From the NCBI GenBank assembly GCA_030044395.1, contig JASHVW010000447.1:1-30257 (forward strand): a stretch of DNA of 30,257 nt, given 5' to 3'. The notes beneath the pieces are model-generated. The model did not search any database and was not told the DNA's origin. It worked only from the letters and a program-made list of their open reading frames with translations. The stretch comes from Verrucomicrobiia bacterium. GTDB lineage: Bacteria > Verrucomicrobiota > Verrucomicrobiia > Limisphaerales > UBA11358. Each line of letters opens with the position of its first letter. Positions within the stretch are counted from its first letter, which is position 1. Shown in pieces: positions 8,346-9,408 of this stretch. A program made the translations under genes and the position numbers.

Positions 8346-8558
8346 TTACTCGCAATCGCTCCTGATTTTCTTCAGCAATTCGTCCAGCTTTTCAATCACG
8401 CTGACCGCTTTTTCCACGCTGATAAAAAGCTCCTGCAAATATTTGCGCTCGAACTCAAGACTCTTTTCATCGCGCCAATAAGTTTTGGTGTCCTGCCATT
8501 TAAGCGACAGTTCCTTGGTGGCGGCGATGAGTTTGCTTTTGCTGGCAATCGCGCTCAT
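8346..8558 (-). CDS. Small WXG100-like helical protein (70 aa)
   Basis: This is the C-terminal part of track ORF 8346..8927, with real start ATG 8558. It has an AGGAG RBS and an ATGA overlap with the upstream stop. Sequence MSAIASKSKLIAATKELSLKWQDTKTYWRDEKSLEFERKYL... reads as helix-W-R-D-helix. Confidence 0.7.
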   Translation of the reverse strand: MSAIASKSKLIAATKELSLKWQDTKTYWRDEKSLEFERKYLQELFISVEKAVSVIEKLDELLKKIRSDCE

Positions 8559-9055
8559 GGGGCTTTCTCCTGCGGCCTGGGGGCAACGACGCCGGTGTAG
8601 GCGTCGAGCGTCTGGATGATTTGCGTGAGCAAAGCGACGGCGGCCGGAACGTCGGCTGTCAGGAAGCCGTGCAACTGTTCGATTTCCTTCAGGAGTGGAG
8701 CGGAGCGGTTGTCCAGTTCGCGGTCCCAACGCTTGAGCAATTTCAACTTGTCCTCGGCCTCCTGGACCGACTGGCTGGCGCGTCGGACGGCCATTTGCAG
8801 GAGCGATGTCGTTTCCTGAAACTCCGACAGCCGGGCGGTGAACAATTCCTGCCGCGCCTGTTCCAGCTTTTTGTTTCGCGCGCGCAATTGGGCCTCCCAG
8901 AAATGCCGCTGCTCGTTTTGCAGCCACAGCCGCGTGCGGACGACTTCGCCGGAGACTTCCTCAAGGGCGGGGCGCGCCTGGCTCGTGAACACAATCAGCG
9001 CGGCGCGAAACAATTCAATCGCTTCGACGGACGTGATTTGGGCCTGCGTTGCCAT
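8555..9055 (-). CDS. Coiled-coil protein (166 aa) in the WXG100/FtsK operon
   Basis: All-helical, charged heptad pattern, GGAGG RBS upstream, and translationally coupled to the next gene. Confidence 0.75.
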   Translation of the reverse strand: MATQAQITSVEAIELFRAALIVFTSQARPALEEVSGEVVRTRLWLQNEQRHFWEAQLRARNKKLEQARQELFTARLSEFQETTSLLQMAVRRASQSVQEAEDKLKLLKRWDRELDNRSAPLLKEIEQLHGFLTADVPAAVALLTQIIQTLDAYTGVVAPRPQEKAP

Positions 9056-9135
9056 GGTGATTTATTCCCTCCACGGACCTTTCCTTTCCGCGTCGCGAGT
9101 CCGCTGGGCGTTGGGCGGAGGGGAGGGAGAGGAGT

Positions 9136-9408
9136 TCATCGTTGCCGCAAGTAATCTTCAATGCGCTGCGCCTTGCGCAACAGATACGGCGTGTGTTCTT
9201 TGGAAACTTCGATGAATTTCTTCAGTGCTTTCATTGCCGTCTTGAATTCCTCGGAGAATTTTTCGTGTTCCTGGTCCTGCCAGGTGTCGGCCAGGGAGCC
9301 AAACCGCGCCTGCAACAGAATCAGCCGGTTCTCGAGGTCCGTGTTGAACCGCTGCAATTCGTCGGCGAACCGCCGGACTTTCTCCGGGTCCATTATTGCT
9401 TGTGCCAT
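9136..9408 (-). CDS. WXG100-family (ESAT-6/EsxA-like) protein
   Basis: 90 aa. N-terminus MAQAIMDPEKVRRFADEL resembles the 'IxVdPeeL' start of WXG100 proteins, and a central LADTWQDQEHEKF turn separates two amphipathic helices. Confidence 0.8.
   Translation of the reverse strand: MAQAIMDPEKVRRFADELQRFNTDLENRLILLQARFGSLADTWQDQEHEKFSEEFKTAMKALKKFIEVSKEHTPYLLRKAQRIEDYLRQR

Follow-up and report, generated by a model that had tools for sequence, protein, structure and literature searches.

Why does a Gram-negative bacterium encode, ahead of an ATPase of the FtsK/EssC type, two very short proteins that both read W-x-D at the place where WXG100 proteins read W-x-G, and how are these proteins related to each other and to the long helical protein encoded between them? 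The question was raised by a stretch of 30,257 nucleotides (contig JASHVW010000447.1 of assembly GCA_030044395.1, from a Verrucomicrobiia bacterium; "the window" always means this whole stretch), in which four genes follow one another in head-to-tail order on the (-) strand: w90, h166, s70 and the gene of the ATPase. An earlier note, made from the sequence without database searches, had described the two short proteins as a lineage-specific heterodimer with the 166-amino-acid protein as a third helical partner. The answer that we favour, with a probability of roughly 0.7, is that w90 is a WXG100 protein of the WxD type, s70 a shortened paralog and h166 a carrier without toxin, and that bundles of these proteins would be read by the ATPase. 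The features on which the argument depends are the following.

9136..9408, (-): w90, member of the WXG100 family (90 amino acids), HP0062 (WxD) type
9256..9282, (-): turn motif W43-Q-D45-x5-F51 of w90 (WQDQEHEKF, residues 43-51)
8555..9055, (-): h166, 166-amino-acid long coiled-coil hairpin without catalytic domain
8346..8558, (-): s70, unannotated 70-amino-acid protein, in our reading a WXG100 paralog that is truncated
8451..8477, (-): turn motif W28-R-D30-x5-F36 of s70 (WRDEKSLEF, residues 28-36)
8496..8498, (-): W21 of s70, seven residues ahead of W28; its equivalent in w90 is F36
8352..8354, (-): Cys69 of s70, penultimate and near-invariant
4432..8304, (-): 1290-amino-acid FtsK/EssC-like ATPase

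The W-x-D motif in w90 and s70

The w90 protein matched the Pfam family PF06013 (WXG100) over residues 6-85 with an E-value of 1.1e-9 (38.9 bits, threshold 27.3). Against the NCBIfam model TIGR03930 (WXG100_ESAT6) it scored 28.7 bits, which is below the cut-off of 44.85. Its nearest solved relative was HP0062 of Helicobacter pylori (3FX7/2GTS, E 4.8e-7), a hairpin with which it could be aligned at full length (residues 2-88). The length of 90 amino acids fits the approximately 100 of WXG100 proteins, and a helix-turn-helix structure is indicated by the HP0062 alignment. The canonical W-x-G was not found at the bend, which reads W-Q-D. This WQD aligned column for column with W-E-G of Staphylococcus aureus EsxA, F51 falling on the following Phe of EsxA, and WQD...F aligned residue for residue with W-R-D...F of HP0062. 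Moreover, w90 is encoded in the same operon as an FtsK/SpoIIIE (EssC/EccC-type) ATPase. By its Pfam match w90 thus counts as a true WXG100 protein, and within the family it belongs to the HP0062 subfamily, the bend of which is W-x-D-x5-F rather than W-x-G-x5-[FY]. For HP0062 itself the W-R-D bend and the FtsK linkage have been published, WRD having been noted with the solved structure (PMC3397514).

In both short proteins the motif is W-x-D-x5-F. The earlier note had correctly located W-x-D at the turn of each, and had counted W-x-D-x4-F with one extra residue in the 90-amino-acid protein; the two motifs have identical spacing, so that the extra residue came from miscounting. Given the amino-acid composition of the window itself, the expected number of such motifs in a protein of this size is about 0.003, and for both proteins about 1e-5.

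To avoid circularity, relatives were collected with the ATPase alone, and the region upstream of each ATPase was then inspected. This set comprised 80 genome loci with 46-92% ATPase identity (81 if the window's own locus is counted), and the order w90-h166-s70-ATPase was retained in 67 of the 81. W43 and D45 of w90 were found in 69/69 and F51 in 68/69 of the loci, and W21, W28, D30 and F36 of s70 each in 71/71. Trp and Asp of the motif, whose conservation among homologs had been proposed as a check on the heterodimer idea, are thus invariant in both proteins across these loci. W-x-D was also present in 120/120 close homologs of w90 among the matches listed. For s70, a profile search yielded 761 cluster representatives (50% identity) at E <= 1e-3. 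An alignment of 129 sequences, consisting of the query and the 128 near-full-length ones (62-80 amino acids) among 150 listed 50%-identity representatives, had W28 in 128, D30 in 127 and F36 in 126 of them; one s70 representative read W-Q-G at the turn. The lengths are equally constant: w90 had exactly 90 amino acids in 68/68 syntenic loci where it was found, and s70 had 70 in nearly all members.

A second WQD, beginning at W21 of s70, had also been pointed out. W21 itself proved to be conserved (71/71 loci, 128/129 aligned sequences), and the corresponding w90 residue, F36, is at least 90% conserved; the third residue varies (E in 34, Q in 17 and D in 6 of the 71). Because only W21 is retained, this segment is no second WxD motif. 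At the other end of s70 the C-terminal D-C-E is near-invariant, with the penultimate Cys69 of this small cytoplasmic hairpin found in 128/129 sequences (alignment A3).

The s70 protein of the window matched no family in Pfam or NCBIfam. Its AlphaFold2 model, computed from a 125-sequence alignment (predicted local distance difference test score, pLDDT, 95.4), consists of a helix (residues 3-27), a turn (28-30) and a second helix (31-69). W28, R29 and D30 are the sole non-helical residues between the two helices, therefore W-R-D is the turn; Asp30, the last of them, directly precedes helix 2 and thus is predicted to cap it. When the model was compared with 48,161 representative chains, the top match was HP0062 (Z 8.5), with residues 1-70 of s70 superimposed on residues 16-83 of HP0062 (root mean square deviation 1.4 A over 68 residues, 19% identity). 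In Foldseek the best TM-scores (0.77-0.83) were all to Esx proteins, with non-significant E-values. As the earlier note had remarked, s70 is short for a family with about 100 residues: its helix 1 is 15 residues shorter. Its view that both proteins are hairpins of WXG100 type and turn at the motif likewise held, for w90 by Pfam and the HP0062 alignment and for s70 by the model.

A hidden Markov model (HMM) of s70 was run on 71 WxD-type WXG100 proteins and gave a median of 11.2 bits (minimum 7.8) in the register that places W28 on W43. In the controls, shuffled sequences reached 5.5 bits at the 99th percentile, and the halves of h166 at most 6.7 bits; for 90-mers from the coiled coils of the ATPases the median was 1.4 and the maximum 11.6 bits. 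When 125 s70 representatives were scanned with Pfam, PF06013 was the most frequent match (11/125, all sub-threshold, best E 1.3e-3); the next-best family was matched by 5 members, and WXG100_2 by 4. We consider it quite probable that s70 is a WXG100 paralog that lacks the first ~15 N-terminal residues and has retained the same bend. Comparison of s70 with h166 by hhalign gave nothing (P 0.047 over 25 columns), and a tblastn search of s70 against plasmids gave no match. A sequence search of the PDB with the s70 profile returned only chance-level matches (CasLambda and the YWTD repeats of LRP6), which were discarded.

The long hairpin h166 and the ATPase

No Pfam (E <= 1) or NCBIfam family was found for h166, nor did it match an LXG, DUF3130, DUF3958, PE or PPE profile. 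The AlphaFold2 model (pLDDT 88.8) is a single long hairpin of two helices (residues 8-77 and 80-155). Its structural matches were generic coiled-coil hairpins only (Smc, HlyD, YscO, chemoreceptors and designed hairpins) with tied scores; LXG, Lap and PE/PPE structures were not among the top matches, and the Foldseek E-values were non-significant. In sister modules, described below, the gene position of h166 is taken by coiled-coil-nuclease toxins. Residues 86-161 of h166, the second helix, aligned weakly with the coiled coil of one such protein (436 amino acids, from Caballeronia); the hhalign P of 0.006 was obtained only with a three-sequence profile of that coiled coil. The alignment ends in a shared L-x-A-Y. 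The HMM of h166 did not match the N-terminal parts of the Caballeronia 436-amino-acid and Helicobacter HNH proteins significantly. Because of the gene position and the weak coiled-coil alignment, h166 looks like a carrier part without toxin. Of the earlier suggestion of an LXG/Lap- or PE-PPE-like partner, what remains is a long hairpin that stands, on weak evidence, in the place of a toxin gene; the specific LXG, Lap and PE/PPE resemblance was not found.

The ends of the last helices of several of these proteins have an acidic/Ala-Tyr motif in common: E-D-Y-L in w90, L-D-A-Y in h166 and L-N-A-Y-L in the 436-amino-acid Caballeronia protein (9136-9180 and 8590-8610 of the window, (-) strand, and ~9870-9910 of the Caballeronia locus L082). 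L150 and Y153 of h166 were invariant in 54 sequences. The motif may be a shared recognition tail.

The ATPase matched Pfam FtsK_SpoIIIE with an E-value of 9e-30 and the EccC/EssC models of NCBIfam below threshold. Pfam recognises one FtsK domain in it, which contains a P-loop; the only Walker A is at residue 771 of 1290, and two hydrophobic segments lie within residues 222-280. The ATPase is presumed to be the motor that recognises the small proteins. In w90, h166 and s70 neither a signal peptide nor a membrane segment was detected, and no EssA, EssB, EsaA or EccB/D/E genes were seen within the window. The close homologs of the window's proteins were labelled Verrucomicrobiota or Limisphaerales. 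Together, w90, h166 and s70 are best explained as the small-protein half of a WXG100/EssC-like ATPase module that stands alone in a Limisphaerales-like Verrucomicrobial genome. Such modules are patchy, w90 being present in 12/301 sampled Verrucomicrobiota genomes; look-alike clusters of s70 and h166 were found in Planctomycetota and Verrucomicrobiota in a protein atlas.

The start codon of s70 and the stop codon of h166 overlap by 4 nucleotides (ATGA), as read from the sequence. Departures from the common gene order were seen in a few relatives. In four loci (L003, L004, L005 and L015, ATPase identity 64-70%) w90, h166 and s70 were absent within 6 kb upstream of the ATPase. L005 has an insert of about 5.9 kb between s70 and the ATPase, the 3' end of s70 being 5.9 kb upstream of the ATPase. 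When such s70-ATPase insertions (L005, L008) were inspected for cargo genes, nothing was found beyond an open frame for an HNH_2 endonuclease on the opposite strand, which belongs to the insert of L005, and a weak seven-transmembrane (7TM) match. L021 (3500-6020) has kept h166, s70 and the ATPase and has no adjoining w90, in place of which a prepilin-type protein and a small membrane-protein open reading frame lie upstream. In one 1149-amino-acid representative (P0492) the N-terminal s70 part (residues 1-67) runs directly into the N-terminal coiled coil of the ATPase; the two may be fused in nature, or a frameshift may have been introduced in assembly where the stop and start codons overlap.

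Sister modules and known systems

W-x-D-x5-F was not confined to the loci described so far. It was also found in H. pylori HP0062 (WRD), in plasmid homologs from Helicobacter (WGD) and Caballeronia (WQD), and in two other Verrucomicrobial genomes, G160 and G260, whose module is of a second type (WQD). The Helicobacter module was compared through the plasmid homolog. Since the bend recurs in Helicobacter, Caballeronia and other Verrucomicrobial homologs, Asp for Gly is no lineage-specific quirk, and this part of the earlier proposal had to be given up. The Asp-for-Gly bend is a constant hallmark of the whole Gram-negative branch (Helicobacter, Burkholderiales plasmids, Verrucomicrobia), to which the Planctomycetes probably also belong.

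The genes between the WXG100 gene and the ATPase gene differ among these modules. On the Helicobacter plasmid a 340-amino-acid WHH/HNH nuclease and then a SUKH immunity gene are situated between the WXG100 and the small pre-ATPase genes. In the Caballeronia plasmid and in G160/G260 this position is taken by a protein of 436-442 amino acids whose N-terminus is long and helical, and a 110-132-amino-acid protein comes next. The small pre-ATPase proteins of the sister modules (76-87 amino acids; 10928-11158 in L082, 10690-10923 in L083, 5038-5286 in L084 and 4935-5198 in L085) have V-R-D or M-D-D where s70 reads W-R-D, and share F-x3-[VM]-[RD]-D-x-[LF]-G. The WXG100 proteins of L082 (Caballeronia plasmid pSBC2-5, 9001-9270) and L084 (G160, 3148-3417) are 82% identical (73/89), and the TerY-P/CARF-linked module has the same gene order on this Betaproteobacterial plasmid and in Verrucomicrobial G160. 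Identity and order together point to a recent horizontal transfer of this module type.

HP0062, the nearest solved relative of w90 and the top structural match of s70, is a close described counterpart. Like w90 and s70 it has the W-x-D-x5-F bend at the same place (as W-R-D-x5-F), its length is ~86-90 amino acids, and like w90 it is linked to an FtsK/SpoIIIE ATPase (the FtsK-like HP0066) in a Gram-negative host; HP0062 and HP0066 have been called a minimal type VII set (PMC4978471). It differs in that published descriptions make it a homodimer and a 'solo' WXG protein. In the Helicobacter modules, moreover, the place of h166 is taken by an HNH/WHH nuclease together with a SUKH immunity gene, and the small pre-ATPase protein lacks the Trp motif of s70. 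Solo WXG domains with a distinct YueA-like ATPase, in which only the middle one of three HerA/FtsK domains is active, were described by Zhang et al. 2012 (PMC3482391) as mobile T7SS (type VII secretion system) versions from lineages that include verrucomicrobia and planctomycetes. The window holds the same class of module, its ATPase having a single Walker A; the WXG protein is solo in that description, whereas here s70 and h166 are conserved before the ATPase.

A similar layout is that of a module linked to CoCoNuT systems, which has two WXG100-like proteins, one of them without the motif, and a coiled-coil-nuclease (2024, PMC11090510). The presence of two WXG100-like proteins and a coiled-coil protein and the gene order are the same as here, and the ATPase there, with three domains of which only D2 is active and with an N-terminal coiled coil, has a likely counterpart in the ATPase here with its single Walker A. 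However, s70 keeps W-x-D where the second WXG100-like protein of that module lacks it; the coiled coil there is fused to a restriction endonuclease (REase)-like nuclease and followed by a DNA-mimic-like protein, whereas h166 is nuclease-free; and the CoCoNuT-linked ATPases are said to be without transmembrane helices, whereas the ATPase here has two membrane segments. Because two WXG100-like proteins were described in that related module, the two-hairpin layout is not new in kind. We did not find described the W-x-D bend throughout the branch, the motif kept in the second hairpin, or the nuclease-free coiled-coil protein, the last two being traits of the stand-alone, membrane-anchored version of the module.

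With canonical WXG100 proteins (EsxA/EsxB, ESAT-6/CFP-10) w90 shares the helix-turn-helix of ~100 amino acids, the bend Trp, the aromatic residue at +8 and the linkage to an FtsK/EssC ATPase. In the T7SSa and T7SSb proteins the bend has the Gly of W-x-G, in contrast to the invariant Asp here, and the host here is diderm. The LXG toxin of T7SSb with Lap1 and Lap2 resembles the present set in that a long helical hairpin is accompanied by two small WXG100-like hairpins, and the sister modules have the LXG-like trait of a toxin attached to a long coiled coil. Unlike an LXG protein, h166 has no toxin domain; it had no Pfam match to LXG, DUF3130 or DUF3958, and no LXG or Lap structure was among its top matches.

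Assembly of the proteins and alternative explanations

On the favoured reading, Asp would cap helix 2 and in this way take over the role that Gly plays, by its backbone freedom, in classical WXG100 proteins. Trp and the Phe at +8 would close the top of the hairpin, by analogy with W43 and Y51 of ESAT-6, which together close the top of the two helices (PMC3935865). The hairpins might form helical bundles in which w90 pairs with itself or else with s70, possibly along h166. The turns and C-terminal tails of a bundle could then be read by the membrane-anchored ATPase with its one active module, and this would lead to export or to delivery to the membrane, export being suggested by family membership. 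In a more specific version, w90, s70 and h166 form one heteromeric bundle with the two short WxD hairpins lying along the long coiled-coil hairpin. The complex by which the sister modules target nuclease toxins would have this bundle, free of cargo, as its core, and the paired W-x-D turns would be the signal for the single-active-site EssC-like motor in diderm bacteria of the Planctomycetes-Verrucomicrobia-Chlamydiae (PVC) group. We regard this version as rather unlikely; if true, it would define a distinct and widespread type VII-like export route outside Gram-positives.

Several points weigh against the favoured reading. The Z score of 8.5 for the match of s70 with HP0062 is tied with those of unrelated hairpins, and none of the s70 sequences scanned reaches the Pfam WXG100 threshold. 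By hhalign s70 and w90 align in register, but with P = 0.013 and a probability of 3%, and much of the s70 profile signal may come from the motif itself. The Caballeronia and Helicobacter proteins in the s70 position have no Trp and no significant similarity to s70 (P 0.09-0.22). The capping role of Asp was read from the DSSP assignment of the model, not from coordinates. HP0062, in contrast to the putative pair of w90 and s70, is a homodimer both in the crystal and by gel filtration (PMC3397514). Finally, export by modules of this type is putative, and cargo would also have to cross an outer membrane.

The homodimer of HP0062 also speaks for a different division of labour, in which w90 pairs with itself and s70 is a dedicated adaptor of the ATPase, bound for example to its N-terminal cytoplasmic coiled coil. 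The s70 gene always directly precedes that of the ATPase, with an 8-nucleotide overlap in most relatives, and is separated from w90 by h166; L021 has retained h166, s70 and the ATPase without an adjoining w90, and P0492 would join s70 and the ATPase in one chain, unless its fusion is an assembly frameshift. However, the invariant turn motif is the same in w90 and s70, as would be expected if both had a reader or a bundle in common, and all three small genes occur together in 67 loci. An adaptor role of s70 is therefore a possibility to be taken seriously, although we would expect the opposite. That s70 is an unrelated two-helix hairpin in which W-x-D-x5-F arose by convergence would agree with the weak sequence statistics, with the tied Z scores and with the fact that hairpin folds are very common. 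It is improbable in view of the profile matches, which are in register and above natural coiled-coil controls from the same loci, of the recurrence of WXG100 and WXG100_2 among the Pfam matches of the s70 family, and of the W-Q-G variant; in addition, the protein in the same position was independently called WXG100-like by structure in the 2024 study (PMC11090510).

Two further explanations concern the module as a whole and h166. Instead of secretion, the genes may serve conflict or defence inside the cell, with hairpins that regulate the ATPase or are remodelled by it. Sister modules do lie inside TerY-P, CARF and McrBC-type (CoCoNuT) islands, some sister ATPases are without transmembrane helices, occurrence in 12/301 genomes is what is expected of accessory elements, and the 82% identical WXG protein is shared by a Betaproteobacterial plasmid and a Verrucomicrobial genome. 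We nevertheless think it unlikely here, because the ATPase has two hydrophobic membrane segments, the operon is flanked by housekeeping-type, unrelated genes (downstream one for a GH95 hydrolase, upstream a divergent one for squalene-hopene cyclase) and not by defence genes, and WXG100 proteins are secreted wherever tested. The structural matches of h166 to YscO (4MH6, 155/159 residues, Z 11.0) and to the YscO-like chlamydial CT670 (Z 10.0) could mean that h166 is the stalk of an ATPase ring, like FliJ/YscO of type III systems, and neither cargo nor carrier. These Z values are tied with those of Smc, HlyD and designed hairpins, h166 has no sequence similarity to YscO-type proteins, and the sister modules have in its position a toxin with a coiled-coil N-terminus; a stalk is thus highly improbable.

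WXG100/EssC modules outside Firmicutes and Actinobacteria have been noted only in asides of comparative genomics, and no experimental test of them was found in the papers searched. The favoured reading would mean that a supposedly 'solo' WXG gene is accompanied by a shortened paralog that had stayed hidden, and by a long coiled-coil hairpin. The new point is s70, read as a shortened member of the family, the W-x-D bend itself being known from HP0062. The advance is modest and overturns nothing known; it provides a concrete set of three proteins for testing complex formation and export, and a simple sequence signature by which hundreds of 'hypothetical' 70-amino-acid proteins can be annotated.

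Two minor observations remain. The sequence upstream of w90 contains a weak match to a sigma-70-like promoter:

9512..9540, (-): TTGCCA-17-AAGAAT

Since the number of sigma-70-like sites (2 found, 1.5 expected by chance) is close to the chance expectation, this match is no evidence on its own. In two of the sampled genomes, G111 and G279, open frames of 330 amino acids were found whose N-terminus weakly matches residues 6-56 of w90 (E ~5e-4); these may be WXG-like domains fused to something larger.

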